From positions 352,001-416,000 of the forward strand of contig JABHQW010000008.1 of the NCBI GenBank assembly GCA_018696595.1: a stretch of 64,000 bases of DNA, written 5' to 3'. A program made the translations under genes and the position numbers. Below are positions 15,096-50,695 of the stretch, one piece after another (within the stretch, counting starts at the first letter, position 1; each line of letters opens with the position of its first letter). The notes beneath the pieces are model-generated. The model made no database searches. It saw only the letters and a program-made list of their open reading frames with translations, and was not told where the DNA came from. The stretch is from Candidatus Woesearchaeota archaeon. Lineage in GTDB: Archaea; Nanobdellota; Nanobdellia; Woesearchaeales; GW2011-AR9.

Positions 15096-16850
15096 ATGAA
15101 TATTAGAAAAATTGGAAGAAATGTTCTTAATGTTAGTAAATATACTGTTGCTGGTGCTACTTTGGGTGCTGGTTTATTTTTTGGTGGTCAAGCTTTAGCT
15201 GAAGAACCAAAAGATGTTGTTGAGCAACCTGACGCTTATGTAGAAGTTCAATCTGAAGTTCAGCCTGAACAAAGAGATCTTTATGATACTCAAACAGCTG
15301 AAGTTGCTGCGCCTCTTGAAGTTACTGTAACTCCTGAAGTTACTAATTATGAAACTCAATCAGCTCCTGAAGTCGTTGCACCTCTTGATGTTCAAACACC
15401 TGATGTTGCTACACCTCTTGAAGTTGCTGTAACTCCTGATACTCCTTCTCCGAGTTTCTCTTGGGGTGATTTGCTGAACGTGAATGGGCAAACTGTTATG
15501 CAAACTCCAACTGTAGAGCCTGTTGCAGAAACTAATCCCGTAGATTACAAGGGAACAACTCCTGCGGTTGCAGATCCGGATGTAGCAATTGTTAATCCTG
15601 CAGAACCCGTTCTAGAACCACAATCTCCTATTCCTGTTAATGAGGATGGAACTGCTTACAAGCTTGGACAAAAACCTGTTGTCGCTGATACTGTTGCAGG
15701 ACCTAATGCTGTTGATTACAAAGGAACAACTCCCGTAGTTGAACCAGCTGTTGCAGATAATCCTGTAGCTCCTTTAGAAGAAAAAGTTGCTGAAGTTAAA
15801 ACAGAAACACCTTCTCATGCTGGGAAATTCTCAGTAAGTGGATGTGAAAAAGGACAAGAAGCTTATTTAGTTGCAACCGAAGACGGAAGTAACTTGAAAG
15901 CAGAATGTAAAACTCCTAAGAAGAAAGGGCCAAGATGTGTTGAACAGTATGAAGGAAATGGTCGATGCATTGAACCCGTTTTAGCAGAATCTCATAATGT
16001 GCTTACTCCTGCTGTAAAAGGATTATGTCCTGGAACAACTCTATGTTATGATAGTTCTGAAGTTGACAATCTTGGTGAACAAATTGCTTTAGTTGCAAGA
16101 GTTTCTGAAGATAATAGAACCTATATCCATCAATTGGATGAATCTGTTAGCCAAAATGGTCAAAATCTTAGTGAGTTAAGTGAAGTTGTTGATCAAAATG
16201 AACAAATTATTGATGAGTTAGATACTGCAGTTGATAAAAACTCTCGTGGTATTGGTTCTCTTGATAAAAAAGTTTCTGATCAATATAAAGTTAAATCTAC
16301 TGATAAAAATAATGTTGAAGTTAACTTAAATCTTAGAGGAACGGTTTCTGCCGGAATTGGTGCTGACTCAGACTCAATTGCTGTTTACATTGAACCTGAA
16401 TTAAGTGTTGGCGGAACTTTCGGAGAACATTTCGGATTATTTGGTTATGTTAACGGAAATATTCCTGCATATGACCCTTCAGAAACTGATAACCATGAAA
16501 ATGATTTAGGAATCATGACTGAAAATGTAGATACTGAAACAAACACTTCTCGAAGAGCTGGAGCTGGTTTAATGGCTAGGTTTCCTGTTGCTGATGGTGC
16601 TGTTACTCCTTATGCTAAAGTAGGAGCTGCTTTTATGCAAACTGAAGCAAGTAAAGATATTTCTCGTAATGGGGAAGAAATTGATGCCCTGTCTGACAAT
16701 TACAATGGCGTTGGTTTAGAAGGCGCATTAGGAATTGACTTTGACTTTGGTCAACCAGGCGGAATTGTTTTAGGTTTAGAAGGAAGAGCAAATTCCTTTG
16801 GTGGCGGATACGGCGCAGGATCTGGAATGTTAGGATACACTTTCAAATAG
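15096..16850 (+). CDS. secreted protein: signal peptide, Pro/Val/Thr-rich repeats, Cys-rich domain, coiled coil, C-terminal putative 8-stranded beta-barrel
   Basis: Signal peptide ending ALA-EE; C-terminal 180 aa show alternating hydrophobic strands ending GMLGYTFK. Confidence 0.8.
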   Translation: MNIRKIGRNVLNVSKYTVAGATLGAGLFFGGQALAEEPKDVVEQPDAYVEVQSEVQPEQRDLYDTQTAEVAAPLEVTVTPEVTNYETQSAPEVVAPLDVQTPDVATPLEVAVTPDTPSPSFSWGDLLNVNGQTVMQTPTVEPVAETNPVDYKGTTPAVADPDVAIVNPAEPVLEPQSPIPVNEDGTAYKLGQKPVVADTVAGPNAVDYKGTTPVVEPAVADNPVAPLEEKVAEVKTETPSHAGKFSVSGCEKGQEAYLVATEDGSNLKAECKTPKKKGPRCVEQYEGNGRCIEPVLAESHNVLTPAVKGLCPGTTLCYDSSEVDNLGEQIALVARVSEDNRTYIHQLDESVSQNGQNLSELSEVVDQNEQIIDELDTAVDKNSRGIGSLDKKVSDQYKVKSTDKNNVEVNLNLRGTVSAGIGADSDSIAVYIEPELSVGGTFGEHFGLFGYVNGNIPAYDPSETDNHENDLGIMTENVDTETNTSRRAGAGLMARFPVADGAVTPYAKVGAAFMQTEASKDISRNGEEIDALSDNYNGVGLEGALGIDFDFGQPGGIVLGLEGRANSFGGGYGAGSGMLGYTFK

Positions 16851-16874
16851 AGTTTGATGTGAGGTAAACTTAAA

Positions 16875-19529
16875 ATGAAAAATACTTTTACTTTTTTTAC
16901 AATTTTCCTATTTGTACTATCTATTGTTCCATTAGCAGCAGCAGCAGATGTTTCTGTTCAAGCTGAATGGTCAGTTAATGGAGAAGCTGCAGGTAAAATA
17001 TTAAATGCTGAAACTGGAGAAGGAACTACTTTCGCAGTGATGGTTAATGCTTTAAATGATAATTTAAACGATTATAACTTCTTTGTTAAAGTTTACGATG
17101 GCAGTTATGATGAGATGGTTAATCCTGGTTGGGAAACTACAAACGTAGAATCTTTCCCTGGCGGAACAACTATGTATACTGTTAATTATAATGCTCCTTT
17201 AACCGAAGGAACTTACTTTATTGTTGCTTCAGCATACTATGCTCAAGAAAACGATGAAGGATTTGATACACTAACATTAATTGTTACAGAAGCTCCTTGT
17301 TTAGATACAGACGATGACGGCGTTTGTGATGAAGATGAAATCTTGGGATGTACAGACACAGATGCAAATAATTACAATCCAAATGCAACTGAAGAAGACG
17401 ACAGTTGTGAATACGATTGTTTAGATTCCGATGGCGATGGTGTTTGTGATGAAGATGAAATCTTAGGGTGTACTGATTCAGAAGCAGAGAATTTTAATCC
17501 AAATGCAACAGAAGAAGATAATAACTGTGAATATGCTTGTACAGATTCTGACAACGATGGTGTTTGTGATGAAGATGATCTTTGTCCAGATGAACCTGGG
17601 CTATTAGATAATAATGGTTGTCCTGAAGAAGTTATTAATGAAGCTCCCATTATTGAAGTTTTTGGAACTAACAAAATTAATGAAATGAGTTCATTAAACT
17701 TAATCGTTGAAATTGAAGATGAGGATATTGTTAACTTAGAAGTTAAGGTTGAAAAATGTGAGATTTATATTTTTGGGCTTTGCTTATTTGCAAGTTACAC
17801 AGATGCTCCTGAAAATTCAGAATTAACTTTTGTTTCTGAAAACAAATATGCTTTTACTTGGACTCCGGATTACCGTTTTGTAAAACATCCTGCAACAGAA
17901 AGATCTATTCGATTAGTTTTTATTGCCGATGACGGAGAAGCAAAAGATTATAATTTACATAAAGTAACTGTTAACGATGTTAATCAATTACCTGTTTTAA
18001 GTTCAGAAGGCGTAGAAGATGTTGATGAAGGAAAAAGCTTTGTTGCTACTTTTACTGCCATTGATGCTGATGAAGAAGACGTCTTGGACTTGGGGATTAT
18101 TTTAATGGGATATGAATTCATGGGTAATGATCTTCCTGATTGGATCTCTATGGAAAGTATTGCAAAGAATACAATTCAATTAACCGTAACTCCTGATTGT
18201 GATAGTGCTGGAGATTACTTCCTTAGATTTACTGCTAACGATGGACTATTCTTGGCGGAACTAATGGAACCATTTACTGTTACCGAAGCTTGTGATGCTC
18301 CAATTCTTGGATGTATGGATGAGTCTGCATTAAACTACAATCCTGAAGCAACCGAAGATGATGAAAGTTGTGAATATACTTGTAGTGATGTGGATAACGA
18401 CGGAGTTTGTGATGAAAATGATCTTTGTCCGCATGAAGTGGGTACTGAGAATAACAAAGGATGTCCTGAAGAACCTGTTGCTGATAATATGGTTCCTGTT
18501 CTAAGAGGATTAATGGATCAATCTGTTTATGCAGAAGAGAAATTAACATTTCAAATTCATGTGACTGATGACAATGATAAAAACATGGACTTAATTGTTG
18601 AAGGACTTCCAGAAGGAGCAGAAGTATTTGCTTCTAATCGGGTTGCACCTTTGCCTTTAAAAAACATCATGCAGAAATTATTTTTGAAAACAGAGTATAA
18701 ACACACTTTTATTTTCAAATGGGTTCCAACAGAAGCACAAGTTGGTGAATACTTAGTAGGATTTACTGCTGACGATGGTTTAGCTAAATCGGAACAAAAG
18801 ACAATCAAAATCACTGTATTAGAACAACCAGTTGAACCTTGTGTTGATACAGATTCTGATGGTATTTGCGACGAAGTTGATCTTTGTCCGTTAGATCCAG
18901 AAGATTTTGATGGTATTGAAGACGAAGATGGTTGTCCTGAAGATGATCCAGTTAACCATGCACCTTTAATCTTATCAAATCCAACTACTGTTGCAACCGA
19001 GAATCATGATTACACTTACCAATTTTTGGCGGAAGATCCAGACGGAGACGAGATAACTGTAACTTTAGTTGACGCTCCTGAAGGGATGACTATGTCTGAA
19101 GATTGGTTAGTTGAATGGATTCCTGAAGATTTAACTAATGGCAAAGTGGCTATTAGTGTAACTGACGGAGAGTTTGTGGTAACACAGAAGTTTACAATTG
19201 GCGTTGCTGAAGCTTACAAGAATGTTAAGCTAGCATCCGTACAATTGGCGGCTGAAGAAGTTGTTGCTGGTGGTTATTTGTCTACTCAAATCAAAGTAGA
19301 AAATAACGGCGAGAAAGATATGGGTGATTTAAAGATTAGTGTGATTGTTCCTGAGCTTGGATTGAAGAAGTCTGTGAGTGAGTTTGACTTGAAACCAGGG
19401 CAAAGTAAGAACAAGAACATTAATCTACAGTTACCTTATTACGCTTACTCTGGTGAGTATCTAGTTAAGGTAAGTGTTAGTAACAGCAATTTCCATGAAC
19501 AAACCTATAGGTTGGTAACAATCTATTAG
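16875..19529 (+). CDS. large secreted Ca-binding surface protein (TSP3-like repeats, Ig/cadherin-like domains, CARDB-like C-terminus)
   Basis: Signal peptide AAA-AD; DxDxDGVCD repeats; three GCxDxxAxNY/FNPxATEDDxSCEY repeats; GAGGT SD. Confidence 0.85.
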   Translation: MKNTFTFFTIFLFVLSIVPLAAAADVSVQAEWSVNGEAAGKILNAETGEGTTFAVMVNALNDNLNDYNFFVKVYDGSYDEMVNPGWETTNVESFPGGTTMYTVNYNAPLTEGTYFIVASAYYAQENDEGFDTLTLIVTEAPCLDTDDDGVCDEDEILGCTDTDANNYNPNATEEDDSCEYDCLDSDGDGVCDEDEILGCTDSEAENFNPNATEEDNNCEYACTDSDNDGVCDEDDLCPDEPGLLDNNGCPEEVINEAPIIEVFGTNKINEMSSLNLIVEIEDEDIVNLEVKVEKCEIYIFGLCLFASYTDAPENSELTFVSENKYAFTWTPDYRFVKHPATERSIRLVFIADDGEAKDYNLHKVTVNDVNQLPVLSSEGVEDVDEGKSFVATFTAIDADEEDVLDLGIILMGYEFMGNDLPDWISMESIAKNTIQLTVTPDCDSAGDYFLRFTANDGLFLAELMEPFTVTEACDAPILGCMDESALNYNPEATEDDESCEYTCSDVDNDGVCDENDLCPHEVGTENNKGCPEEPVADNMVPVLRGLMDQSVYAEEKLTFQIHVTDDNDKNMDLIVEGLPEGAEVFASNRVAPLPLKNIMQKLFLKTEYKHTFIFKWVPTEAQVGEYLVGFTADDGLAKSEQKTIKITVLEQPVEPCVDTDSDGICDEVDLCPLDPEDFDGIEDEDGCPEDDPVNHAPLILSNPTTVATENHDYTYQFLAEDPDGDEITVTLVDAPEGMTMSEDWLVEWIPEDLTNGKVAISVTDGEFVVTQKFTIGVAEAYKNVKLASVQLAAEEVVAGGYLSTQIKVENNGEKDMGDLKISVIVPELGLKKSVSEFDLKPGQSKNKNINLQLPYYAYSGEYLVKVSVSNSNFHEQTYRLVTIY

Positions 19530-19536
19530 GTATGAC

Positions 19537-19575
19537 TATTGCGGGGTAGCTATTAAGTGTAGCTACTCAACAATA
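19537..19575 (+). other. intergenic stem-loop
   Basis: TATTG..GGGTAGCTA-ttaagtg-TAGCTACTC..CAATA. Confidence 0.5.
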
Positions 19576-19675
19576 CTAAACCAACGAAAACTTTATAAAC
19601 CAAAGCGGTTTTAAAGACTAAAACACAAAAAAATAACATTCATAAAAGGATAAATTTTTTTTGGAGGAAGAAAAA

Positions 19676-20926
19676 ATGAAAAAACTTTTAAGTATAATGG
19701 CTTTATTCGTAATTAGCTTATTGACTTTATCAATGGTTAGTGCATTAGATGCAAATGACCTAGTAATTAAGTCTATTGAAGTTAATGGCCACAATGTAGA
19801 AGATGGCGAAGTTCTTGCTGTTGAAGAAGGAGAAACTTTAGATGTTGAAGTTGGCTTATTAGCTAACGCTGGTGCAGAAAATATTGAAGTGGAAGTTGAA
19901 ATTTCAGGTTATGAATACAACGACCAAGAAGATATGGAAGCTACCGCACACATCGATAATATCCAAGCTGGAAATACAAAATATTTTGACTTGGAAGTAA
20001 CTTTGCCTAAGAAATTAGACAAGGATGAATACATGTTAAGAGTTCGTGTAATGGATAAGAATACTGCGGCAATTACCCACAATATTTTATTATCAATCGA
20101 ACCTACAAGACATGGAATCGATATTGCAGACGTTGCTTTATCCCCTGGAGAAACCCAAAAAGCTGGTAGATCTTTTTTAGCTACTGTTCTATTGGAAAAC
20201 TTCGGAGATAAAACTGAGAAAGACGTTAAAGTTGAAGTTGCAATTCCTGCATTAGGAGTTAAAGCTACTGAATACGTTGACGTTGTTGTAACCGATAACA
20301 ATAATGTAGATTATGAAGACGTTCCTGAAATGTTCTTACCTCTTCCTGCTACTGCAGAAGCTGGTGCTTACGACATGATCGTTACAGTTAAATACGATGA
20401 CTTAAGGGAAACTGTTAGCCAAACTTACAAAGTTAATGTTTTAGCTAACGAACTATTCCAAAAGTCTGACAAGTTAGTTTTAGCTGTTGGTCCGGAAAGT
20501 CAAACTGTTGCTGCTGGTAACACTGCTAGTTATGCTGTTGCATTAACAAACGCAGGATCAACTTCTAAAGCTTATGTTTTAGATGTAGTTACTGGTGACT
20601 GGGCTACCGCAACTGTTAGTGATGCTTTAGTTGTTTTAGAACCTGGAAAGAACAAAGTTGTTCAAGTAGATGTAACCGCTGCTAGTAATGCTGTTGAAGG
20701 TCAACACGTTGCAAGCGTTGCTATTATGTCTGGTGACGAAGTTCTTGAAACCATCGTTCTAAAAGCAAACGTAGCTGGCACCGCTAGTGAGAGTTTTAGC
20801 TTAAGAAACGGTTTGGAAATCGCTTTAATCGTCTTAGTTGTTCTATTAGTAATCATTGGTTTAATCATTGGTTTCAGTAGATTAAGAAAAGACGACGAAG
20901 ACGAAGAAGAACAAACTTACTACTAA
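19676..20926 (+). CDS. S-layer/CARDB-like Ig-domain protein with C-terminal TM and acidic tail
   Basis: ATG at 19676 after GGAGG; signal peptide; beta-rich domains; TM followed by RKDDEDEEEQTYY. Confidence 0.8.
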   Translation: MKKLLSIMALFVISLLTLSMVSALDANDLVIKSIEVNGHNVEDGEVLAVEEGETLDVEVGLLANAGAENIEVEVEISGYEYNDQEDMEATAHIDNIQAGNTKYFDLEVTLPKKLDKDEYMLRVRVMDKNTAAITHNILLSIEPTRHGIDIADVALSPGETQKAGRSFLATVLLENFGDKTEKDVKVEVAIPALGVKATEYVDVVVTDNNNVDYEDVPEMFLPLPATAEAGAYDMIVTVKYDDLRETVSQTYKVNVLANELFQKSDKLVLAVGPESQTVAAGNTASYAVALTNAGSTSKAYVLDVVTGDWATATVSDALVVLEPGKNKVVQVDVTAASNAVEGQHVASVAIMSGDEVLETIVLKANVAGTASESFSLRNGLEIALIVLVVLLVIIGLIIGFSRLRKDDEDEEEQTYY

Positions 20927-21081
20927 GTAAGTGGGGACGTTTAATCTTCCTCCAATTTTTTATTTTTTTTCTCTTTTTTTGGGAGGGCTTTTATTTTTCT
21001 TATAATCTTTTTTCTATGTTTTTTTAATACTGTTTATTAGTTCTATAACCTTTTTAAACTCTAGATTTTGTTACTAGCTTA

Positions 21082-22185
21082 ATGGAAATAGCAATAATTG
21101 GGGCTGGTCCAATCGGCAGTTACGCTGGTTATTTACTAGCTAAGTCTGGACATAATGTTAATATTTATGAGCGGAAGAAAGAGATTGGTAAGCCCGTTCA
21201 ATGTACTGGCATATTTACTTCTGACTTTGATGGATTTTCTTTTCTAAACAAAAATAAATTTTTAGTTAATACTATTAATAAAACGGAAATCAATTTTCCT
21301 AATGGTAGCAAGATTGCTGTTAATCAGAAAGAATATGTGGTTTGCAGAACTAAGTTTGATAACCACTTAGCTAATCTGGCTGTTACTGAAGGAGCAAAAA
21401 TTTTCTTGCAACATTCATTTATTAGGAAAGAAGGTGAGAATCTAGTTGTTAAAGATCTTGCTAATGATTGTGAAAAAGAAATTAAACCAAACATAGTAAT
21501 CGCTGCAGATGGCCCCTTATCAAGCGTAGCAAAAGCTTATGGTTTCTATCATCATCAGAGACAACACAATTATGGTGTGCAGGCTTTAGTGGGGGGGAAC
21601 TTTGATTCTAATACAGTACAAACGTTCTTTGGTAAAGATATTGCTCCTGGTGTGTTTGTTTGGGTTGTTCCTGAGAGTTCAACCATGGCGAGAGTTGGTT
21701 TAGCTACAGAAAAAGATGCCCGTAAATACTTTGAGAAATTTGTTCAGAATAAAGATTATGAACTCTTAGAAATGCAGGCAGGTACAATTCCTATCTATCA
21801 TCCTTCACAAGAATTGGTTAAAGATAGCTGTTATTTGCTTGGAGATGCTGCTGGGTTCGTTAAAGCGACTACTCTTGGTGGTGTAATTCCTGGAATGAAA
21901 CAGGCGGAAGCTTTAGTTAGATGTTTAAATGATTCTGATTTGGATTATGAAGAAGAGCTTCAACCCATCATTAGTAGGCTCAAGTTACATCTGAAAATTA
22001 GAAAAGTTCATGATCGGTTTAGTGGAGAAGATTGGGAAAAGTTAGCTACTTATTCTAATAATCCTAAAGTTTTGAAATTATTGAACACTTATACACGGGA
22101 GAATGTAACTACGTTATTTAGAAAGATTATTTGGGCAGAGCCAAGAATGTTATATTTTAGTAAGTATTTAGGCGAATTTCTTTAA
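21082..22185 (+). CDS. geranylgeranyl reductase-family FAD oxidoreductase
   Basis: GAGPIG, PVQCTG, IAADG, WVVP, LLGDAAG..K..T.GG. Confidence 0.85.
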   Translation: MEIAIIGAGPIGSYAGYLLAKSGHNVNIYERKKEIGKPVQCTGIFTSDFDGFSFLNKNKFLVNTINKTEINFPNGSKIAVNQKEYVVCRTKFDNHLANLAVTEGAKIFLQHSFIRKEGENLVVKDLANDCEKEIKPNIVIAADGPLSSVAKAYGFYHHQRQHNYGVQALVGGNFDSNTVQTFFGKDIAPGVFVWVVPESSTMARVGLATEKDARKYFEKFVQNKDYELLEMQAGTIPIYHPSQELVKDSCYLLGDAAGFVKATTLGGVIPGMKQAEALVRCLNDSDLDYEEELQPIISRLKLHLKIRKVHDRFSGEDWEKLATYSNNPKVLKLLNTYTRENVTTLFRKIIWAEPRMLYFSKYLGEFL

Positions 22186-22908
22186 CACTCTCAGATACTT
22201 TTTATTCAATCCACCTAAGCGGAAGATAATTATTTCATTTACGTTTGCTTCTCTAGCTAACTTCAAATCCATTTCTAATTGTTCTAATTTGATATTCGGT
22301 TCATTGCCGTGGATTCCTACTGAGATTGTTCCCAATGCTACAAGATAATTCTTTCCCAGTTCTCTAACTCCTGTTTCTAATTCTTTTCTTACATATTCTT
22401 CTTTGAAATTGTGCAAAGAATGATAGATCATTTTGATTACTTTTACTTTTTTACTTTTATAATGTAAACCCCAGAATCTTAATAACAACTGGCTTAATTT
22501 ACTTTCTGGATAATATTCTGCCAAATAAACTGGTTTGTTGTAATTGTGAATAAATTCCTTAATTAATGATTTGTTTCTAAAGAAATTTAGGAACTGGGTT
22601 ACATAAAGAAAAGGATTTTGTCTTGTTGGCAATTCTAGGTCTAGCATTATTGCTGTTTTTTTTGTCTCTTTAAAGATTCTCTTCAAAGCCGATCTTTTGC
22701 TGAAAGGAGAAATCCAATATCCTTCGCTTCTTTTTAAAATTGGCCAGTAAATAAATTCTTTGATGTGTCTGTTCTTAATGCTTTTTTTAATTTCATTAAA
22801 TTCCTTTAAAGAAGGGGCTGCTAGATATAATTTCGTTGGAAAATTGATTAATCTCAGTTTACTTAAGTTTTCTTTTGTGGGAAACTCTTCGAAAAAGCTT
22901 ATTTTCAT
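22168..22908 (-). CDS. hypothetical protein (possible TIM-barrel)
   Basis: 246-aa ORF, alternating beta/alpha pattern, ends IIIFRLGG. Confidence 0.7.
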   Translation of the reverse strand: MKISFFEEFPTKENLSKLRLINFPTKLYLAAPSLKEFNEIKKSIKNRHIKEFIYWPILKRSEGYWISPFSKRSALKRIFKETKKTAIMLDLELPTRQNPFLYVTQFLNFFRNKSLIKEFIHNYNKPVYLAEYYPESKLSQLLLRFWGLHYKSKKVKVIKMIYHSLHNFKEEYVRKELETGVRELGKNYLVALGTISVGIHGNEPNIKLEQLEMDLKLAREANVNEIIIFRLGGLNKKYLRVLKKFA

Positions 22909-22977
22909 GGATGTTAGAATAATCTTGTTGTTAATATGTTTTTTGGAAATAAAAAAATTAAGAAAAAAAATAAAAAA

Positions 22978-23883
22978 TTAAAAGGTAGTTCCAACAAATC
23001 CACCTAAGTTGTAATCAAGAGTTCCTTCATTTCCAACTTCAGTTAGGTCTGCAGCAGCTCCAATTTGGTATTTGTCCATTAATGTTACTCCTGCTCTTAA
23101 TTTCTGAACACTAAACTGGTGGCCAGTTTCTCCAACACTAGTTAGGTCCTCTAAGTTTATTAGCAAATCAACTTTTTCTCCTAACTCTGGGCTGTAGCTT
23201 AGGTTTACTACAAACTCTCCGTCTGGGCTTTCCATTGTTTTTACTGTTGCTAAGGCATACACTGCAAAATCTCCTAGTGCTTTGAAGTATTGCAAACCTG
23301 CTCTTGGAATTACTCCCATTCCTGGTGCTGCCTGTACTTCTCCTACAATGTCTAAGCCATCAACTAAGTTATAGCTCAAGTCCATTAAACCAAAAAAGCT
23401 TACTTCTCCTTCATAGTCTGAAGTGGTCATTTGTCTCAAGAACAAATTGGTTTTTGGAGCGATACTTGTGGACACTTTTGTGTCTAAGGTTGTTGATTGG
23501 TGTCCTGCTGATAATTCTACTGATCCGCTTGCTGGGGTTTCATCTGCTAGGCCAACTCCTGGTGCTAATATTGCACAAGCCACTCCTGCTGCATAAGCTA
23601 AGTTTCTGGGGGTGGCTAATCTTTGTAATGCTTCTTTTGCTTCTGCAGTTATTTTCTCTAAGATAGTTGGTTCTCTAACTAATGCGATCCCTCTTTTATC
23701 GCTAATAACTTTTCCTTCTCCTGCAACTTCTTGTATAATTCTCTCTTCTGCAGTAAGTGGTGCTTCAGCAACTTTTGCTTCTTCATCAATATCTTCTGGA
23801 AGATATAATCTTCCTTCGGTTTTCCAATATCTTTTTCCTCCAGTTTCAATAAGTTCTGAAGGTAAAATCATTTCATTTGTCAT
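22978..23883 (-). CDS. putative ~12-stranded beta-barrel protein with extended N-terminal leader and internal signal peptide
   Basis: About 90-aa leader, then RNLAYAAGVACAILAPGVGLA-DE, then amphipathic strands ending GGFVGTTF; AGGAGG SD. Confidence 0.8.
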   Translation of the reverse strand: MTNEMILPSELIETGGKRYWKTEGRLYLPEDIDEEAKVAEAPLTAEERIIQEVAGEGKVISDKRGIALVREPTILEKITAEAKEALQRLATPRNLAYAAGVACAILAPGVGLADETPASGSVELSAGHQSTTLDTKVSTSIAPKTNLFLRQMTTSDYEGEVSFFGLMDLSYNLVDGLDIVGEVQAAPGMGVIPRAGLQYFKALGDFAVYALATVKTMESPDGEFVVNLSYSPELGEKVDLLINLEDLTSVGETGHQFSVQKLRAGVTLMDKYQIGAAADLTEVGNEGTLDYNLGGFVGTTF

Positions 23884-23925
23884 TTTTCATATCTCCTCCT
23901 TTTTTAGGCAGAAAGGCAAACTGCT

Positions 23926-23945
23926 TAACTACTATTTAGTAGTTA
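23926..23945. promoter_or_regulatory. perfect palindrome TAACTACTA-TT-TAGTAGTTA, candidate operator
   Basis: Seen directly in the divergent intergenic region, about 20-30 nt downstream of the minus-strand TATA (TTTATATA, 23956-23963). Confidence 0.65.
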
Positions 23946-24028
23946 TGTTTGTTGGTATATAAATGCTCTCTCCCCTCGAAGGGGCGAAAAAAGAAAGATT
24001 TATAACTAAAACAAGCTTATTTAATCTA

Positions 24029-31077: not shown

Positions 31078-32108
31078 GAACTAGTTCTCATTGCATTATA
31101 ATCTACTAGATTAAGAACATAATCAGAAACTTTCCAATTGATTCTTGTAAACTCTCCAAAATGATCTCCACCGGCTTGGGCTGATGCTTCTTTATCAAGA
31201 AGTGCAATTTCTACTTCTGGGGCAACAATCTCAGAAACATCACGATGACGATATTCTCCACTCCAAATACTTTTGGTGTGGGCAACAAATCTTGGGATCA
31301 TCGAGTAACGATTACCTCCAACTGCCCTAATGTGCATTTTCCCTTCTGATCTTGCTTTTTTTGCATAAGGAAAACCCACAAAATTATAACCAAAATAAGG
31401 GGTCGTTCCTGCTACTAAAGCATGGATTTGATTTTCTTGTAAGAATCTTTCCCCATCTCCAAGAGGAAGCCTCATAAATTCTATGTCTTCTTCAAAAATT
31501 TCAGCAAGTTCTGCCCCTTGTGGAAAACTAATTTCAAATTTTAGTTTTTTACCAAAAAAGATTTCTGTAGCAGAAGAAGGGATTGTGCTAAAGTATCCTA
31601 CTAAACCGTTCAATGGGCTTTGTTTGTACTTTTTTAAAATGATTCCATCCCAACCAGCCCCGGTTAACATAGAATAAGTTTTCTCTTTTTCTCCTTGAGG
31701 GGTGGTTCCAGTAATCTCAATTAACGGGACTTGTATTGTTGGTAATTCATTAACATCTGTTTCTAAAATCATTTCTAATTGTTCTAAATGGTCTTTACCT
31801 GCACCTAATTCATAAGAAATAGCATTACCCGTTCCCAATTTTAATATTGCAAATAATTGTTTGTTAAATGACAAACCTAATTCTTCACATAAAAGAATGA
31901 ATTTATTACTTTCATATCTGATTGTTCCATCTCCTCCTCCAAGAGTAATTACTTGTGGTTTATCCTGTAAAGTTTTTCTTCTAGGATAATTTCCTGAATA
32001 TATTTTAACTCTATAGTCTTCAGCAAATCTTTGCTCAATTGCATTAATTATCTTCGGGGTGAATCTTCCAGCTCTTGGATTTAATTTAGCTACTAGGCTT
32101 TCTACCAT
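31074..32108 (-). CDS. diacylglycerol/lipid kinase family protein
   Basis: GGGDGT and LGTGNA motifs; GD near the C-terminus. Confidence 0.75.
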   Translation of the reverse strand: MVESLVAKLNPRAGRFTPKIINAIEQRFAEDYRVKIYSGNYPRRKTLQDKPQVITLGGGDGTIRYESNKFILLCEELGLSFNKQLFAILKLGTGNAISYELGAGKDHLEQLEMILETDVNELPTIQVPLIEITGTTPQGEKEKTYSMLTGAGWDGIILKKYKQSPLNGLVGYFSTIPSSATEIFFGKKLKFEISFPQGAELAEIFEEDIEFMRLPLGDGERFLQENQIHALVAGTTPYFGYNFVGFPYAKKARSEGKMHIRAVGGNRYSMIPRFVAHTKSIWSGEYRHRDVSEIVAPEVEIALLDKEASAQAGGDHFGEFTRINWKVSDYVLNLVDYNAMRTSS

Positions 32109-37435: not shown

Positions 37436-37436
37436 A

Positions 37437-44031: not shown

Positions 44032-44388
44032 ATGAGAAAGGTATTAATTGTTTCGTTGGCTTTGTTAACTGTATTTCTAGTTTCTTGTGGAAATACAGGG
44101 AATGGTATAGCTGGGTCAACTAACTTAGATGCATTTGCAGAATGTTTAGCTGAGAATGGTGCTACTATGTATGGTGCAGAATGGTGTAGTCATTGTAAAG
44201 ATCAAAAAGCAATGTTTGGAAGTTCTTTCAAGAATGTAGATTATGTTGAATGTACTGTTGAACAACAAAAATGTGTGGAATCTGGCATTTCGGGTTATCC
44301 TAGTTGGGTGTTTTCCGATGGGACCATTTTAGCAGGAGTACAACAATTCTCAACATTGGCAAAGAAGACGGGTTGTGTTTTGAACTGA
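44032..44388 (+). CDS. thioredoxin-like lipoprotein
   Basis: Lipobox LVS-C; YGAEWCSHC; GYPSW; GAGGTGA SD. Confidence 0.85.
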   Translation: MRKVLIVSLALLTVFLVSCGNTGNGIAGSTNLDAFAECLAENGATMYGAEWCSHCKDQKAMFGSSFKNVDYVECTVEQQKCVESGISGYPSWVFSDGTILAGVQQFSTLAKKTGCVLN

Positions 44389-44444: not shown

Positions 44445-45749
44445 GTGATGTTCATGAGAAAAATAAATTCATTAATATTGGTTGTTTGTTTTGCTTTAGT
44501 TATGGCACTACCTTTAGTTTCTGCTGCAACTAATTATGGTTTTCCTAATGTTGAAACAACATTATTATCTCAAGATCCCGATCCTGTAGAACCAGGACAA
44601 ATTGTGAAAGTTAAATTCAAAATTGAAAATGATGGAAAAAAAACGGGTGAAGATGTAATTGTTAAAGTTCTTCCTAAATTTCCTTTTTCTAGTTATGATG
44701 GCATTGTTGAAAAAAATATCGGAAAACTTCTTGCTTCTTCTGGTACGGATGCAACAGTTGTTGAGTTTAGATTAAAGGTTGATGAAAAAGCAGCCGAAGG
44801 AGATACAGAATTAGAACTTATTGTTTTAATAGATGAGGGCTTAGGAAAAAGTTACACTAATGATGAGTTTTTAATAAATATTCAAACCCATGATGCGGTT
44901 TTAGACATTACTTCAATTAGTTCAAACCCAAAACAAATTGCTCCTGGAGAAAGTGCAGAAGTAAACATTATGGTTAAGAACTTAGCCGACTCATTGTTAA
45001 AAGATATCAAATTTAAATTAGATTTCGATGATGACGATTTACCTTTAGCACCTTATCAATCCTCTTCCGAAAGAAGAATTTCTCAATTACAATCTAATTA
45101 TCAAAATAGTCTAAGCTTTAATGTTATTGCTGATCCTGAGGCCACTCCTGGTCTATACAAAGTACCCGTAACAATAACCTATAATGATGAGAATGGCAAT
45201 GCTTATTCTGTAAGTGACATTTTAGCTGTTACAGTGGGAGAAATTCCTAAACTTAAAGCTTACATTAAGAAAAGTGCAGTTTTACAAGCAAAATCAGAAG
45301 GAAAAATTACTTTAGAAATTGCTAATTCTGGTAGTTCTAACATTAAGTTTTTAGAAATTACTTTATTGCCTTCTGACGATTATCAATTAGTTTCTACTAC
45401 TAATTACTTTTATATGGGGGATGTTGATTCTGATGACACTGAAAGTGAGGAAGTTGATATCTACATTAACAAGAAGGTTGAAACTTTGCATGTTCCAATG
45501 CTTTTGAAGTATACTGATGCAAACAACAAACCTTTTCAGCAACAATTTGATCTAGAAATGAATCTTTATTCTTCTTCCGAATTAAAGAAGTTTGGATTGG
45601 TTGAAAGTAGTAGTGCGGGAATTTACTTTTTGATAATTGTGTTGGGCGTTATTGGTTTTATTCTTTACAGAAGTTATAAGAAAGATCCTGACAAGTTTTC
45701 TAGGAGATGGAAGAGAAGATTATCTTTCAGATTCAGAAAAAAGAAATAA
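44445..45749 (+). CDS. COG1361 S-layer-domain protein
   Basis: Signal peptide, QDPDPVEPG, Ig-like repeats, C-terminal TM with basic tail; upstream of ABC permeases. Confidence 0.85.
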   Translation: MMFMRKINSLILVVCFALVMALPLVSAATNYGFPNVETTLLSQDPDPVEPGQIVKVKFKIENDGKKTGEDVIVKVLPKFPFSSYDGIVEKNIGKLLASSGTDATVVEFRLKVDEKAAEGDTELELIVLIDEGLGKSYTNDEFLINIQTHDAVLDITSISSNPKQIAPGESAEVNIMVKNLADSLLKDIKFKLDFDDDDLPLAPYQSSSERRISQLQSNYQNSLSFNVIADPEATPGLYKVPVTITYNDENGNAYSVSDILAVTVGEIPKLKAYIKKSAVLQAKSEGKITLEIANSGSSNIKFLEITLLPSDDYQLVSTTNYFYMGDVDSDDTESEEVDIYINKKVETLHVPMLLKYTDANNKPFQQQFDLEMNLYSSSELKKFGLVESSSAGIYFLIIVLGVIGFILYRSYKKDPDKFSRRWKRRLSFRFRKKK

Positions 45750-45798
45750 TTAGAGAACAACAATATTAAAATAGGGTTTTATTATATCCATATACACA

Positions 45799-47013
45799 AT
45801 GATAAGAGACTACTTTAGGTTAGCATATAAAAGTGCCAAACAAAGAAAGATGCGTTCTTGGCTAACTATGATTGGTATTTTTATTGGTATTGCTGCCGTT
45901 GTGGCTTTAGTTTCTCTTTCTCAAGGTTTACAAACCGCTATTGCTGAACAGTTTGTAGGTTTAGGTTCTGATAAAATAATTATTCAGGGAATCAGTTCTG
46001 GTTTTGGTCCTCCTGGGACAGGTGTTGAAGTTCCTTTAACTATTAATGATCGGGAAGTTCTTGAAAAGGTTAAAGGTATTGATAATGTTGTTGGTAGATT
46101 AGTTCGTTCTGTTAAAATAGAATCCAATGATGAAGTTAAATATTCATTTGGTGCTTCTCTTCCAGAAGATAGTGAAGATATTGATTTAGCAGTTGAGGCT
46201 AATAATTATAAGATTGGTCAAGGTCGCTTGCTTAAGAAAGGGGACAAATACAAAGTAATGATTGGACACAACTTTGCAGAAGATTTCTTTGATAACAGTT
46301 TAGAAGTAAGAGATAAAGTTTTAATTGAAGATTTTGATTTTAAGATCGTTGGGATTTTAAAGAAATCAGGGAACCCTCAACAGGACGAAACCATAGTAAT
46401 TCCTGAAGCCGCAATGAGAGAAATCTTGGGAATCGAAGAAACTTATGATATTATACCTGCAAAAATCAGTGCTGGTGAAGATCTTACAATAATTACAGAA
46501 AGAGCGAAAAAAGAATTAAGAAAATATCGTAATGTGGAAGAAGGTAAAGAAGATTTTACAATTCAAACTCCTGAAAGTCTTTTGGCTACTCTTAATACCA
46601 TTTTATTAATCGTACAAGGTGTCCTAGTTGGTATTGCTGCAATTTCTCTTGTTGTTGGTGGTATAGGAATTATGAACACGATGTATACTGCTGTTTTAGA
46701 AAGAACTAAAGAAATCGGTGTGATGAAAGCAATTGGCGCTAGGAATTGGGAAATTATGTCTATCTTTGTTATTGAATCCGGGATGTTGGGCGTGATTGGT
46801 GGAATCATTGGGGTAAGTTTAGGTTTTGGAATTAGTAAATCAGTTGAACTTATTGCCTTCCAAATTTATGGTAGCTTTTTAATAAGAGCAGATTTTAATT
46901 TGGGGTTGTTGATTGGAATGTTAACATTTGGATTTGTTATTGGGGCTTTGTCTGGTTGGTTCCCAGCAAGACAAGCGGCTGCTTTGAAACCGGTGGATGC
47001 ATTAAGAAAATAA
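45799..47013 (+). CDS. MacB/FtsX-type ABC transporter permease
   Basis: RSWLTMIGIFIG, VGGIGIMNTM, ERTKEIGVMKAIGA, PVDALR. Confidence 0.92.
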   Translation: MIRDYFRLAYKSAKQRKMRSWLTMIGIFIGIAAVVALVSLSQGLQTAIAEQFVGLGSDKIIIQGISSGFGPPGTGVEVPLTINDREVLEKVKGIDNVVGRLVRSVKIESNDEVKYSFGASLPEDSEDIDLAVEANNYKIGQGRLLKKGDKYKVMIGHNFAEDFFDNSLEVRDKVLIEDFDFKIVGILKKSGNPQQDETIVIPEAAMREILGIEETYDIIPAKISAGEDLTIITERAKKELRKYRNVEEGKEDFTIQTPESLLATLNTILLIVQGVLVGIAAISLVVGGIGIMNTMYTAVLERTKEIGVMKAIGARNWEIMSIFVIESGMLGVIGGIIGVSLGFGISKSVELIAFQIYGSFLIRADFNLGLLIGMLTFGFVIGALSGWFPARQAAALKPVDALRK

Positions 47014-47014
47014 A

Positions 47015-48226
47015 ATGATAAAAGACTATTTCAAAATACCAGCAAAGGAAATCAGAAGAAGGAAGTTACGTAGTTGGTTAACTCTTATCGGTATTTTCAT
47101 TGGTATTGCTGCGATTGTTTCTTTGATTACTTTAGGTCAGGGTTTAGAGAATGCAATTGAAAAACAGTTCTCTGCTTTGGGAAAAGATAAATTGTTCATT
47201 CTACCAAAAGGGGGATTCTTTGGAATGGGTTCTTCAGAATTACTTACAGAAGATGACTTAGAATTGGTTCAGGGTACTTCTGGTGTTAAGATTGCTACTG
47301 GTCTTACGCAAGGTTTCGCTAAATCTGAATTTAATGATTTGGTTCATTATGGTTTCATTTCAGGGATTTCTACGGATCCTGAAGAAAGAGCTTTAGTGTG
47401 GGATGCACAGACTTATGGAATGGCGGAAGGGAGATTGTTAAGGAAAGGTGATAAGTTCAAAACAATCTTGGGTTATGAATATTCTTTGCCTAATTTATTT
47501 GATAAGAGAGTAGAATTGGGAGATAAAATTTTACTACATAATAAAGAGTTTAAGGTGGTGGGGTTCTTGGAAAAGATTGGTTCTCCCCCTGATGATCAAG
47601 CAGCGATTATCCCTTTAGATGCATACGAGGAAGTATTTGATTCTAATAATGAACTCAATTTTATTATTGCTCAAACTAAATTGGCAGAAGATCCTTTTTT
47701 AGTTGCTGAAGATATAGAAGAAGAATTAAGGGACGATCATCGTCTTGATGAAGGCGAAGAGGATTTTGAGATTCAAACTCCTGAACAATTTGCAGAAACT
47801 TTTGGAGTTATCTTAGATATTGTCCAAATTGTTTTAATTGGTATTGCAGGAATTGCACTTTTGGTTGGTGGTATCGGGATTATGAATACCATGTTCACTG
47901 CTGTTTTACAGAGAACGAAAGAGATTGGAATTATGAAAGCTATTGGGGCAAGAAACTCTCACATTTTATACTTATTTTTAGTTGAGTCGGGATTGTATGG
48001 TATTCTGGGGGGTTTAATTGGAGTTACTCTAGGAATCGGGTTTGCTAAACTTACTGAATTTGCTTTTGTTCAAGCAGTAGGGCCAGCATTCTTAGTAATA
48101 ACCATTGATTGGGTTCTTATAATTGGAACATTAATTTTTTCATTTTTAATTGGTGTTCTTTCTGGAATTGCTCCTGCAAGAAGAGCATCTAAATTGAATC
48201 CTGTAGATTCGCTAAGGTATGAATAG
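47015..48226 (+). CDS. MacB/FtsX-type ABC transporter permease (paralog)
   Basis: Same motifs as the upstream permease. Confidence 0.92.
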   Translation: MIKDYFKIPAKEIRRRKLRSWLTLIGIFIGIAAIVSLITLGQGLENAIEKQFSALGKDKLFILPKGGFFGMGSSELLTEDDLELVQGTSGVKIATGLTQGFAKSEFNDLVHYGFISGISTDPEERALVWDAQTYGMAEGRLLRKGDKFKTILGYEYSLPNLFDKRVELGDKILLHNKEFKVVGFLEKIGSPPDDQAAIIPLDAYEEVFDSNNELNFIIAQTKLAEDPFLVAEDIEEELRDDHRLDEGEEDFEIQTPEQFAETFGVILDIVQIVLIGIAGIALLVGGIGIMNTMFTAVLQRTKEIGIMKAIGARNSHILYLFLVESGLYGILGGLIGVTLGIGFAKLTEFAFVQAVGPAFLVITIDWVLIIGTLIFSFLIGVLSGIAPARRASKLNPVDSLRYE

Positions 48227-48266
48227 AAAGTTAAATAAAATATAAAAGAAGGAATAACAAAATATT

Positions 48267-48974
48267 ATGAAAAAAACAAAATACCCTTTGATTGAACTTA
48301 AAGAAGTTTGGAAAACTTATTACATCGGGAAAGTTTCTTTAGATGTGCTTAAGGGGGTTGATTTAGTGATTAACAAAGGAGAGTTTGTTGTTATTGTTGG
48401 TCCTTCTGGATCTGGTAAAAGTACAATGATGAATCAAGTTGGTGTCTTAGACGTACCAACAAGTGGAACAATCAATCTTAATGGGGTTGACATTTCTACG
48501 TTAACTGAATCTGATTTGGCGCAATTAAGGGGGAAAACAATTGGTTTTGTATTTCAACAGTTTAATTTAATTCCAACCTTAACTGCTTTAGAAAATGTTA
48601 CTTTACCAACAATTTTTCAGAATGTTCCAGAATTGGAAAGGTTGGGGAAAGCTAAAGAACTATTACAAATGGTCGATTTAGGAGACAGAATGAACCATAA
48701 ACCTAATGAATTAAGTGGTGGACAACAGCAAAGAGTAGCAATTGCTCGTGCTTTGGTTAATGATCCCGAAATTATTTTGGCTGATGAGCCAACTGGAAAC
48801 CTAGATTCTAAGTCAGGACAACAAGTAATGGATTTTCTTGCTAATTTACATACAAAAGAAGGTAAAACTATAATTCTGGTGACTCACGATTTAGAGTTAG
48901 TAAGGTATGCTCAGAAAGTGGTTTATCTGAAAGACGGTGAAGTTGTTAAGATTAAGAAGAATCATCGGGGATGA
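48267..48974 (+). CDS. ABC transporter ATP-binding protein (LolD/MacB type)
   Basis: GPSGSGKS, LSGGQQQR, ADEPTGNLDS, VTHD. Confidence 0.95.
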   Translation: MKKTKYPLIELKEVWKTYYIGKVSLDVLKGVDLVINKGEFVVIVGPSGSGKSTMMNQVGVLDVPTSGTINLNGVDISTLTESDLAQLRGKTIGFVFQQFNLIPTLTALENVTLPTIFQNVPELERLGKAKELLQMVDLGDRMNHKPNELSGGQQQRVAIARALVNDPEIILADEPTGNLDSKSGQQVMDFLANLHTKEGKTIILVTHDLELVRYAQKVVYLKDGEVVKIKKNHRG

Positions 48975-49090
48975 TTTTTTTTCTAGTTTTAAGTGTTTTG
49001 TGATGGTTAAATAGTAAAATATCTTTTAAACTAGCTAAATCTTTATAAATCATGATATGGAGTAACAGGTAAAAGGGTGAGGTGAGCTTC

Positions 49091-50695
49091 ATGGAACAAA
49101 AACAATTAGATGAAGAAGATACTTTTTTTGGTGAAGAATTCATTGAGGAAGATACTCCTAAGAAGGAACTCAAAGAAGAGAAACCACTAAAAAAAGAGAA
49201 ATCAAAAGCTTCTACAAAAAAAACAGTTAAAAAAGAAGCGGCAGATAAAATGGAAACAAAAGAAGAACCGAAAACGGTTATTATTGATGAGAATGATAAA
49301 GAAGTTAAAGATAACACTGAAGAAGTGAAAATAACTTCTACTAAGGAACCAATTAAAGAAGAACCAAAAGCTGAACCAAAAGCTGAAACAATAGCACCAA
49401 TTGATCCTTGGGCTGATGAAGATGAAGACGAAGGTGGGATGTTTAAAAGTACTTCTTCTTGGAAATTGATCTCCGGAATTTTGATTATATTACTGATAGT
49501 CTCAGTTTATACAAACGGATTTGGATTAGCAGCAAGCAATGGTCTAGGGGATGATATCTCTTTAACAGAAGCTGAGGTTAAAGCGTTAGGTTATGTAAAT
49601 AATAATCTATTACAAGCACCATTTGTGGCGGAATTAACTAGTTCTGAAGATGCTGGCAATTTGTATAAAGTGACTTTAAGTGTAGCTGGACAAACAGTTG
49701 ATTCTTACATTACAAAAGATGGTAGTTTATTTTTTCCACAAGGATTTGAAACTGTTGAAGCGGCTGTTGAAGCAGTAGAAGTTTCTATGGACGATGATAC
49801 TGTTAAAGGAGATGCTAATGCGCCTGTAACAATTATTGAGTTTAGTGACTTTGAATGTCCTTTCTGTGGCAAGTATGTTTCAGAAACATATCCTCAGATT
49901 GTTAAGGATTACATTGAGACTGGTAAGGTTAAGTATGTATTTAGGGACTTCCCATTAGATTTCCATCCTAGTGCTCAGAAAGCAGCAGAAGCCGCTGAAT
50001 GTGCAGGAGAACAAGGAAAGTATTGGGAAATGCATGATGTTTTGTTTGAGAATCAAGATGCATTAGAAGTAGAGACCCTCAAAATGTATGCAGTTAGTCT
50101 TGGTTTAGATACTGCTGAGTTTAATAGCTGTTTAGATTCTGGAGCAATGGCCGAAGAAGTTAAGAAAGACTTAGCTGACGGTCAAGCTTATGGGGTTTCA
50201 GGAACACCTGGATTTTTCATTAACGGAAAATTAATATCCGGTGCACAACCTTTTGAAGCGTTTAAACAAGAGATCGAAGCGGCTTTAGTTGAAGCTTCCG
50301 GTGAAGTAGTTGAGACAGAAGAGCCAGTTGTTGTTGAAGAACCAGTTGTAGAAGTGGTGGTTGAACCCGAAACAGAAGTTGTAGTGGCAGATCCAGTAGT
50401 TGAGGAACCAGTTGTTGTAGCACCTGTTGGAGAGTTAAAAGTTGTTCCAGTTACAGCAAAGAAATGGATGTTCGGACCTAACCAAATTGTTGCTAATGTG
50501 GGTGATACTGTTCAATTAAATATTGTCCCTAATGGATTAGATTTTACTTTTGCTTTGCCAGCGTTTGGGCTTGAACAAGAGATTGTTGGTCCTACAACCG
50601 TTGAGTTTACTGTTGATACAGTTGGTGAGTTTGAGTTCAAATGTAGCAGTTGTGAAGATTGGCGAGGAATGATTGGAACTATAGTTGTTGAGTAA
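49091..50695 (+). CDS. membrane-anchored DsbA-family thiol-disulfide oxidoreductase with C-terminal cupredoxin-like domain
   Basis: EFSDFECPFC, YVFRDFP, GVSGTPGFFING; C-terminal FEFKCSSCEDWRGM; ATG 49091 after GGTGA. Confidence 0.88.
   Translation: MEQKQLDEEDTFFGEEFIEEDTPKKELKEEKPLKKEKSKASTKKTVKKEAADKMETKEEPKTVIIDENDKEVKDNTEEVKITSTKEPIKEEPKAEPKAETIAPIDPWADEDEDEGGMFKSTSSWKLISGILIILLIVSVYTNGFGLAASNGLGDDISLTEAEVKALGYVNNNLLQAPFVAELTSSEDAGNLYKVTLSVAGQTVDSYITKDGSLFFPQGFETVEAAVEAVEVSMDDDTVKGDANAPVTIIEFSDFECPFCGKYVSETYPQIVKDYIETGKVKYVFRDFPLDFHPSAQKAAEAAECAGEQGKYWEMHDVLFENQDALEVETLKMYAVSLGLDTAEFNSCLDSGAMAEEVKKDLADGQAYGVSGTPGFFINGKLISGAQPFEAFKQEIEAALVEASGEVVETEEPVVVEEPVVEVVVEPETEVVVADPVVEEPVVVAPVGELKVVPVTAKKWMFGPNQIVANVGDTVQLNIVPNGLDFTFALPAFGLEQEIVGPTTVEFTVDTVGEFEFKCSSCEDWRGMIGTIVVE

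Follow-up and report, generated by a model that had tools for sequence, protein, structure and literature searches.

The stretch of DNA analysed here, referred to throughout as the window, comprises 64,000 nucleotides (G000:C3:352001-416000) from the genome of a Candidatus Woesearchaeota archaeon, a 1.19 Mb assembly in 8 contigs that is 97% complete with an estimated contamination of 0.38%. It encodes two unrelated secreted proteins, P0001 and P0002, whose C-terminal parts are predicted to fold as closed outer-membrane-type beta-barrels of 8 strands (barrel 1) and 12 strands (barrel 2), respectively. A preliminary description of the window had combined both with lipoprotein, lipid kinase, thiol oxidoreductase and transporter genes into an envelope toolkit of the diderm-bacterial style. 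Our results show that the region is not one system and that it contains three unrelated layers, a lipoprotein pathway, generic envelope housekeeping, and the two barrel proteins. Unless a genome and contig or a locus are named, positions are those of the window, and the features central to the barrels are the following:

15096-16850, plus strand: barrel 1 protein P0001, 584 amino acids (AlphaFold2 model, Foldseek and VIA matches)
22978-23883, minus strand: barrel 2 protein P0002, 301 amino acids (AlphaFold2 model, VIA matches)
23927-23944, unstranded: perfect palindrome of 8 + 8 bases with the half-site CTACTA/TAGTAG, a candidate operator inside the 79-bp divergent promoter region of barrel 2 and the TrmB gene
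23963-25984, plus strand: TrmB-family regulator, 673 amino acids, with an N-terminal winged helix-turn-helix and a duplicated effector-like domain (Pfam TrmB, PF01978, E 2.8e-12, residues 28-94)

In the AlphaFold2 model of P0002, built on an alignment of 24 sequences, residues 119-300 form 12 long antiparallel strands with a predicted local distance difference test score (pLDDT) above 90. VIA matched this model, over almost all of its length, to PcoB (Z 19.1, root-mean-square deviation 2.7 Å over 178 residues), OMPLA (16.8), NanC (16.0), Tsx (15.5), and KdgM (15.4), and the nearest predicted models are Bacteroidota proteins of 203 amino acids (TM 0.85, root-mean-square deviation 1.4 Å). Across 24 members of the family, the outward face has a hydropathy of +1.70, carries 2.9% charged residues, and is variable, whereas the lumen has a hydropathy of −0.74, is 27.9% charged, and is more conserved, with 34 near-invariant columns against 15 that face outward. 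As modelled, a hydrophobic and variable outside around a charged and conserved inside is characteristic of a barrel that sits in a membrane and has a working lumen, and is the reverse of what a soluble barrel presents. With its conserved, charged lumen, barrel 2 looks like a selective channel, by analogy with NanC, KdgM, Tsx, and PcoB. P0002 ends in ..GGFVGTTF, the C-terminal motif of the family is ..GGF-x-G-L-K-F/L, and the last residue is F in 14 of 24 members and L in 9 of 24.

Upstream of the first strand, P0002 carries a conserved region of 95 amino acids, a signal-like hydrophobic stretch ending in GLA-DE, and about 12 linker residues. The 95-residue region is kept at 55-72% identity in seven proteins, the copy in the window and six close relatives, and could be an extended leader or else a domain that stays in the cytoplasm ahead of a signal anchor. 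In most members of the family, the signal peptide is an ordinary cleavable one with an AxA-type site, and some members have a region of 25-95 amino acids ahead of the signal sequence. The family counts 41 members; it occurs in 11 of the 201 order genomes and in 16 of the 61 genomes of the taxonomic family. Archaeal labels (Woesearchaeota, Micrarchaeota, and two bins given as Methanosarcinales) are attached to its named members and to each of the nine loci from species-representative genomes, and no sequence link to bacteria was detected for it. The host genome itself encodes two complete copies, and a fragment of another lies at the end of a contig (G000:C3:5-163, minus strand). The second full copy (G000:C3:28863-29552, minus strand) is a short form in which a region of 25 amino acids with an IPYVG..LTTE motif precedes the signal sequence, and it has its own divergent TrmB regulator.

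A homologous TrmB-family regulator of about 245 amino acids is the divergent neighbour of the 12-strand barrel gene in 10 of 11 loci, two of them in the host genome and nine in other genomes of the order. The promoter region of the second barrel/TrmB pair also contains a palindrome of the half-site CTACTA/TAGTAG (G000:C3:29612-29631). In the 1.19 Mb of the genome, the pattern CTACTA-N(0-12)-TAGTAG occurs at four sites, two in the barrel/TrmB intergenic regions and two inside coding sequence; the palindrome is not conserved at the barrel loci of other genomes. The pairing with TrmB, together with the palindrome at both host loci, argues for a direct, metabolite-responsive regulation of the barrel gene through this candidate operator. 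Elsewhere in the genome, a further TrmB-like regulator (G000:C5:32603-33701, 260 amino acids) is directly followed by a gene for a small lipobox protein.

P0001 is built differently. A cleavable signal peptide is followed by a Pro-rich region, a Cys-rich module, a coiled coil, and a C-terminal barrel at approximately residues 405-584. The C-terminal 180 amino acids were modelled with AlphaFold2 as an 8-strand barrel with long hairpins at a pLDDT of 70-88, and Foldseek and VIA matched it to OmpW, OmpA, the N-domain of OprF, and OmpX with Z scores of 15.2-11.8 and superposition over nearly the full domain. On its outer face, the stretches of the strands nearest the membrane are hydrophobic; the hydropathy is +1.12 for the outer as compared to −1.44 for the inner face. 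P0001 ends in ..GYTFK, and its relatives mostly end in F with the pattern G-x-G-Y-x-F. These relatives are very rare: an exhaustive HMMER search recovered only 12 among 1.84 billion representative proteins. Such a search was needed, as a word-indexed search returned the query alone and a single-sequence search of the 201 order genomes gave two marginal hits. A single weak sequence match, at E 2e-5, was to a bacterial 'opacity protein-like surface antigen'. Within the taxonomic family, 8 of 61 genomes encode a member of the stalked family, and in about five of these the barrel part is included.

A secreted protein of 661 amino acids encoded 13.5 kb upstream of the window (G000:C3:336476-338461) is a third candidate with a layout like that of P0001, consisting of a signal peptide, a beta-rich head, a long coiled coil, and about 190 C-terminal amino acids that form a strand-rich domain ending in ..GFAVQATW. 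It has no profile similarity to the barrel 1 family, the hhalign probability being 0.5%. Its Atlas feature matches to porin clusters (0.86-0.91) are at the level of a lead, and the pLDDT of its Atlas model is 0.44.

Neither barrel belongs to a Pfam or NCBIfam family, and up to E 10 nothing was found for the barrel domains except Legionella_OMP at E 0.024. OMP_b-brl (PF13505), CopB (PF05275), and Channel_Tsx (PF03502) gave no sequence match for either barrel, and PF13505 is absent genome-wide. According to the models, the likeness of both barrels to bacterial barrel families is at the fold level only. A home-made dyad-moment screen of all open reading frames for additional barrels was dropped because it did not rank the known barrels high. 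The barrel-like C-termini seen in the preliminary description are therefore borne out as far as prediction goes, both proteins being modelled as closed, outer-membrane-type folds with a hydrophobic exterior rather than as soluble or open ones.

The gene for barrel 1 lies in a cluster of genes encoding surface proteins, flanked by a permease gene and a lipid-related flavoprotein gene:

13799-14974, plus strand: Trp/Tyr-type amino-acid permease, upstream flank (Pfam Trp_Tyr_perm, E 1.5e-38; the same position is filled in loci L022, L023, and L024)
16875-19529, plus strand: secreted surface protein of 884 amino acids with thrombospondin type 3 (TSP3)-like motifs and He_PIG/Big_9/CARDB-like Ig domains (Pfam, motif count)
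19661-20926, plus strand: secreted NPCBM_assoc/CARDB-like protein, third member of the cluster (Pfam NPCBM_assoc, E 1.1e-8; the same position is filled in L022-L024)
21082-22185, plus strand: geranylgeranyl-reductase (GGR)-like flavoprotein of the archaeal lipid saturation type, downstream flank (Pfam FAD_binding_3, GGR_cat; synteny in L022 and L023)

The order permease, barrel protein, TSP3/PKD adhesin, NPCBM-like protein, and GGR-like gene is kept in these three divergent loci, whose flanks are archaeal (aIF5B, aEF-1beta, aS21, RtcA, and GatD). The 884-residue protein beside barrel 1 had been described as a TSP3 protein. It does contain five Asp-rich motifs of the form D-x-D-x-D-G-x-C-D-E-x-[DE], which are of the thrombospondin type 3 kind and calcium-binding-like, but Pfam TSP_3 was not reported for it at E <= 0.01; its L024 orthologue has precomputed TSP_3 (PF02412) matches. 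Both L022 and L024 encode orthologues immediately 3' of their barrel genes, with blastp E values of 1e-27 to 1e-31 and precomputed TSP_3/PKD matches. In these two relatives, an extra gene is located between the permease and barrel 1 genes (L022:5392-6972 and L024:1565-4327), with none in the window; it encodes a protein of 526-920 amino acids with a coiled coil, one transmembrane helix, and a Cys-containing outer domain.

The second layer of the region is formed by the lipoprotein pathway, with the following genes in the window:

32592-33362, minus strand: Lgt, prolipoprotein diacylglyceryl transferase (Pfam LGT, PF01790, E 8.6e-65 over positions 1-239 of 240; TIGR00544)
32165-32551, minus strand: cupredoxin lipoprotein with lipobox LVAC (Pfam Cupredoxin_1, E 1e-13), 41 nt downstream of lgt
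33455-34828, plus strand: Cys-rich lipoprotein of 457 amino acids with lipobox LSGC, divergent from lgt (no Pfam family)
44032-44388, plus strand: thioredoxin-like lipoprotein with lipobox LVSC and a CxxC motif
51323-52270, plus strand: lipoprotein with lipobox LVGC and no family assignment

The four lipobox proteins are thus present as had been described, and Lgt, as judged from its sequence, is intact. It scores 182.3 bits against TIGR00544, above the equivalog cut-off of 118.9, and in an alignment with the Escherichia coli enzyme (5azb), H103-G-G, R143, N146, E151, G154, and R239 are identical and the GR..NF.NGE..G motif is conserved. E243 of the E. coli protein aligns with an Asp, and the position of Y235 lies in a low-confidence stretch and is uncertain. 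LspA is encoded 19 kb upstream of the window (L001:1453-1935, an open reading frame of 160 amino acids) and scores 107.6 bits for TIGR00077/PF01252 against a cut-off of 73.95, with both catalytic Asp motifs, GNLLD and FNIAD. The lipoprotein intramolecular transacylase Lit (PF07314) was found at G000:C6:269377-269769 with 74.5 bits, the cut-off being 24; in a set of 14 control genomes, Lactococcus is the sole match to this family. A pattern scan of the whole genome identified 32 lipobox signal peptides, nearly all of them convincing and many with the same LVGC box; Cys is otherwise a rare residue.

We then looked at the rest of the machinery that the preliminary description had proposed to seek. 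LspA is present, but the 97%-complete genome contains neither the N-terminal domain of Lnt (PF20154) nor LolA (PF03548), Omp85 (PF01103) was detected neither there nor in any of the 201 order genomes, and the matches to Skp (OmpH) in the host genome all stay below threshold. Lgt and LspA also occur in bacteria with a single membrane. The combination of Lgt, LspA, and Lit without Lnt or LolA corresponds to the pathway of Firmicutes, a single-membrane pathway, and not to that of diderm bacteria. Lgt and LspA were each found in 38 of 40 relatives, and a phylum-wide sample of 301 high-quality genomes, which covers further orders of the class, has Lgt in 264. Lgt is an old trait that is near-universal in this archaeal class.

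These numbers also settle the value of a co-occurrence test between barrels and lgt. As Lgt is near-universal and the barrels are sporadic, being found in 5-26% of genomes, their co-occurrence carries no information on linkage, and the two barrel families do not track each other across genomes.

The Lgt-LspA-Lit pathway of the host genome contradicts published statements that archaea have no Lgt and Lsp homologues and use AliA/AliB instead (PMC12462473). Our literature search on Lgt/LspA in DPANN archaea found nothing beyond that paper, and comparative papers on Woesearchaeota mention neither lipoproteins nor porins. Regarding the lipids themselves, geranylgeranylglyceryl phosphate (GGGP) synthase and PlsC were not found in the host genome, and CDP-archaeol synthase (CarS, G000:C5:52232-52744) and the GGR-like gene are present. 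This gene content suggests that archaeal lipids are probably salvaged and re-activated and not made de novo.

The remaining genes of the supposed toolkit are these:

31074-32108, minus strand: DAGK_cat-family lipid kinase, last gene of the lgt string (Pfam DAGK_cat, E 2e-7)
44445-45749, plus strand: secreted protein of the CARDB/NPCBM_assoc-like kind, encoded immediately 5' of the ABC genes (a model of a putative S-layer protein matches it weakly)
45799-48974, plus strand: MacB-type ATP-binding cassette (ABC) exporter, with permeases at 45799-47013 and 47015-48226 (MacB_PCD, PF12704, and FtsX, PF02687, in both) and the ATPase at 48267-48974 (PF00005)
49082-50695, plus strand: DsbA/Thioredoxin_4 protein with a Lys/Glu-rich N-terminus and a cupredoxin-like C-terminus (Pfam Thioredoxin_4, E 5e-37)

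Pfam confirmed the lipid kinase gene, the DsbA fusion, and the two-permease ABC system as they had been described, and archaeal core genes (ABCE1/RLI, class I glutamyl-tRNA synthetase, aspartyl-tRNA synthetase, TrmB regulators, and the GGR-like gene) are indeed interleaved with them. Of the label LolCDE/MacB given to the ABC system, the MacB half holds and the Lol half does not: the best NCBIfam match of the permeases is MacB, and they reach 61 and 75 bits with the lolCE model, whose cut-off is 362. The protein at 49082-50695 scored 174 bits for the NCBIfam family of Rcas_1661 thioredoxin-like lipoproteins, with a cut-off of 190. DsbA-like proteins and DAGK_cat kinases are not specific to diderm bacteria. 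With a Firmicute-type lipoprotein pathway and a generic MacB/FtsX-type exporter, the idea of a diderm-style toolkit is not supported, and the reading given in the preliminary description holds only in part; among the listed genes, the barrels alone are diderm-specific. The DAGK_cat kinase beside lgt could feed lipid salvage, the linkage being shallow; lgt, cupredoxin, and kinase were rejected as a functional unit, the string being kept only inside the same taxonomic family, in 3 of 16 loci. Elsewhere in the window (35711-39698), a gene for adenylosuccinate lyase (574 amino acids) overlaps by 14 nt with one for adenylosuccinate synthetase carrying a C-terminal HAD-type hydrolase (758 amino acids), an unusual PurA-HAD fusion.

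Considering all three layers, we propose a monoderm-type lipoprotein pathway, envelope housekeeping, and two unrelated barrels whose favoured place of action is the contact site with a partner organism; as a whole, we regard this explanation as evenly poised between right and wrong. The lipoprotein pathway would anchor exported redox and surface proteins to the single cell membrane, and the ABC exporter, the DsbA-like oxidoreductase, and the DAGK_cat kinase make up generic housekeeping of the envelope. Both barrel proteins would be exported by Sec and would then enter a bilayer without an insertase. As Omp85 is missing from the genome and from 200 relatives of the order, we infer that the barrels must insert unaided, and small barrels of 8 to 12 strands are known to fold into lipid bilayers in vitro without the beta-barrel assembly machinery (BAM). 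Because a pore would be harmful in the energised membrane of the archaeon itself, insertion into the membrane of a partner at a contact site is favoured. This location, with the stalked 8-strand protein as a foothold for adhesins, is our best guess and a tentative one. In such an arrangement, the adhesin cluster may have its foothold in the 8-strand barrel, and the 12-strand barrel may be a regulated channel through which solutes, namely metabolites of the partner, are taken up. That DPANN archaea of the Woesearchaeota type possess true barrels inserted without Omp85, the 12-strand one acting as a TrmB-regulated channel in the partner membrane and the 8-strand one as an adhesin foothold, is in this complete form somewhat doubtful.

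Several points weigh against placing the barrels in a partner membrane. No host is known, and we know of no precedent for a monomeric outer-membrane-type barrel that inserts into a foreign membrane from outside. If the hydrophobic stretch of P0002 is not cleaved, barrel 2 would be tethered about 12 residues from the archaeon's own membrane. The pairing with TrmB indicates regulation and not which substrate is transported. The model of P0001 is middling overall (mean pLDDT 62) and rests on an alignment of 11 sequences, and no RNA runs are listed among the public runs, nor were expression data found.

The main rival is that the barrels reside in the archaeon's own cytoplasmic membrane, or at its outer face under the surface layer (S-layer), after Sec export and without an insertase, the 8-strand barrel as the anchor of a stalked surface protein and the 12-strand barrel as a gated or narrow channel. 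We consider this unlikely, though well worth weighing. The conserved 95-residue N-terminus of the window's 12-strand protein and its six close relatives, followed by the hydrophobic stretch and the short linker, would hold the barrel there if uncleaved, the partner organism is so far only postulated, and the 8-strand barrel need not leak, since its nearest folds on the predicted model are OmpA and OmpX, which are not open pores. On the other hand, the polar, charged, and conserved lumen of the 12-strand barrel is channel-like, the plain cleavable AxA-type signal peptides of most family members speak against a tether, and we know of no transmembrane beta-barrel in an energised cytoplasmic membrane.

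It is also conceivable, and in our view quite improbable, that the barrels are not inserted in a membrane at all, either because an alternating sequence pattern has been over-read or because they are secreted carriers or oligomers for lipid or hydrophobic cargo that serve lipid scavenging. The probable salvage of lipids in a host with CarS and a GGR-like gene and no GGGP synthase or PlsC would suit such a role, a porin-like superfamily that traps lipids in oligomeric chambers has been published (PMC12228718), and the alignments under the models are shallow (24 sequences for barrel 2 and 11 for barrel 1). Against this stand the pLDDT above 90 throughout the 12-strand barrel, the Z score of 19 to a solved barrel over 178 residues, an exterior so hydrophobic, with its 2.9% of charged residues, that it is incompatible with a soluble monomer, and conserved residues that face the lumen and not the exterior.

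A second, outer membrane belonging to the archaeon, or to the barrel-bearing minority of its relatives, had been among the possibilities first raised, and we now judge it very improbable. It would account for at least two outer-membrane-type barrels with terminal aromatic residues in one genome, and the Altiarchaeales, a DPANN-associated lineage, have been reported to be double-membraned. Our searches gave it no support: Omp85, LolA, Lnt, and OMP_b-brl were not found in a 97%-complete genome and Skp was sub-threshold only, none of the 201 order genomes has Omp85, and the lipoprotein pathway, which includes Lit, is a monoderm one. The patchy presence of the barrels in related genomes (5-26%), with families that do not track each other, is also unlike that of a basic trait of cell architecture.

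The soundness of the assembly had been named as a point to check. The window lies on a contig of 428 kb, its GC content is 32-33%, and the close homologues of its proteins bear the label Candidatus Woesearchaeota archaeon. A total of 20 DNA runs of marine or seawater origin, belonging to 15 studies, contain the 8.8-kb stretch with both barrel genes, and exact contigs from four independent marine runs, with even depth, span every junction around the barrel genes. Independent contigs bridge the permease and barrel 1 (13681-15609), barrel 1 and the TSP3 gene (15740-17328), the NPCBM gene, the GGR-like gene, and the following gene (20848-22427), and the gene after the GGR-like gene, barrel 2, and TrmB (22442-24668). 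A contig of run X8 that joins 15108 to 23781, near both barrel gene starts, and skips 8672 bases is most likely noise, with just 23 letters to one side of the join. The GC content at third codon positions is 0.15 and 0.23 in the barrel genes against 0.19-0.33 in their neighbours, thus at or below the native range. That the bacterial-looking genes come from contamination or a chimeric assembly of bacterial DNA is a negligible prospect: the total GC of the barrel genes, slightly above the window mean (0.39 versus 0.33) because of their Gly/Ala-rich composition, is outweighed by the spanned junctions, the native third-position GC, flanks of archaeal-type regulators and core genes, the archaeal labels of all named members and nine genome loci of the 12-strand family, the length of the contig, and the low contamination estimate.

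In textbook accounts, transmembrane beta-barrels are found solely in the outer membranes of bacteria, mitochondria, and plastids, always together with an Omp85 insertase. The models obtained here confidently predict two unrelated barrel families in archaea with a single membrane and no insertase. Literature searches turned up no description of outer-membrane-type barrels in Woesearchaeota; one paper points to a porin-like protein of Altiarchaeales that may be distantly related (PMC12228718). Newly described here are the high-confidence prediction of a DPANN-only 12-strand barrel family, its pairing with TrmB, and the palindrome common to both host loci, as well as the conserved synteny, read from the gene order, of the 8-strand barrel with a TSP3/PKD adhesin. 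Also new are Lit in the host genome, the order-wide lack of Omp85, and the negative linkage test. If the barrels really insert, the questions become which membrane receives them and how this happens without BAM; both matter for the long-standing question of how the tiny DPANN cells obtain food from their partners. A channel and a foothold at the contact site, if true, would give Archaea their first functional transmembrane beta-barrels and represent a new route for a symbiont to tap its host. The small size of the barrels (185 amino acids) makes refolding and conductance experiments straightforward.

Comparison with known systems places the three layers as follows. The ABC genes resemble LolCDE in having two MacB-type permeases and a LolD-like ATPase in a row, but the permeases are far under the lolCE cut-off and the genome lacks LolA, so that they are best described as a generic MacB/FtsX-type exporter. 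The lipoprotein pathway matches the Lgt-LspA-Lit pathway of low-GC Firmicutes in all three enzymes, each above its curated cut-off, in its classic lipoboxes, and in that Lnt and Lol were not found; it differs in its archaeal host, in which the lipids are presumably salvaged isoprenoid ethers. As with the TrmB of Euryarchaeota and the trehalose/maltose ABC transporter, a regulator stands beside a transport-type gene that it probably controls, with a palindrome in the common promoter, but here the target is a beta-barrel and not an ABC transporter, and the palindrome is only a candidate operator.

The C-terminus of P0001 shares its predicted 8-strand fold with OmpW, OmpX, Ail, and the N-domains of OmpA and OprF. 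Unlike in OmpA, the barrel comes last, behind a long stalk of Pro-rich, Cys-rich, and coiled-coil parts, which is the order of an autotransporter; in contrast to OMP_b-brl proteins, it has no PF13505 match, is set in an archaeal surface-gene cluster, and belongs to a very rare family. Barrel 2 has in common with PcoB/CopB (7pge), NanC, KdgM, Tsx, and OMPLA a closed antiparallel 12-strand barrel, as predicted, of about 185 residues with short turns, an N-terminal signal peptide, a terminal Phe, a polar lumen, and a hydrophobic outside. It differs from these bacterial barrels in that it has no detectable Pfam sequence similarity and is found only under archaeal (DPANN) labels, and in that its genome, with no Omp85 and no known outer membrane, pairs it with an archaeal TrmB-type regulator.

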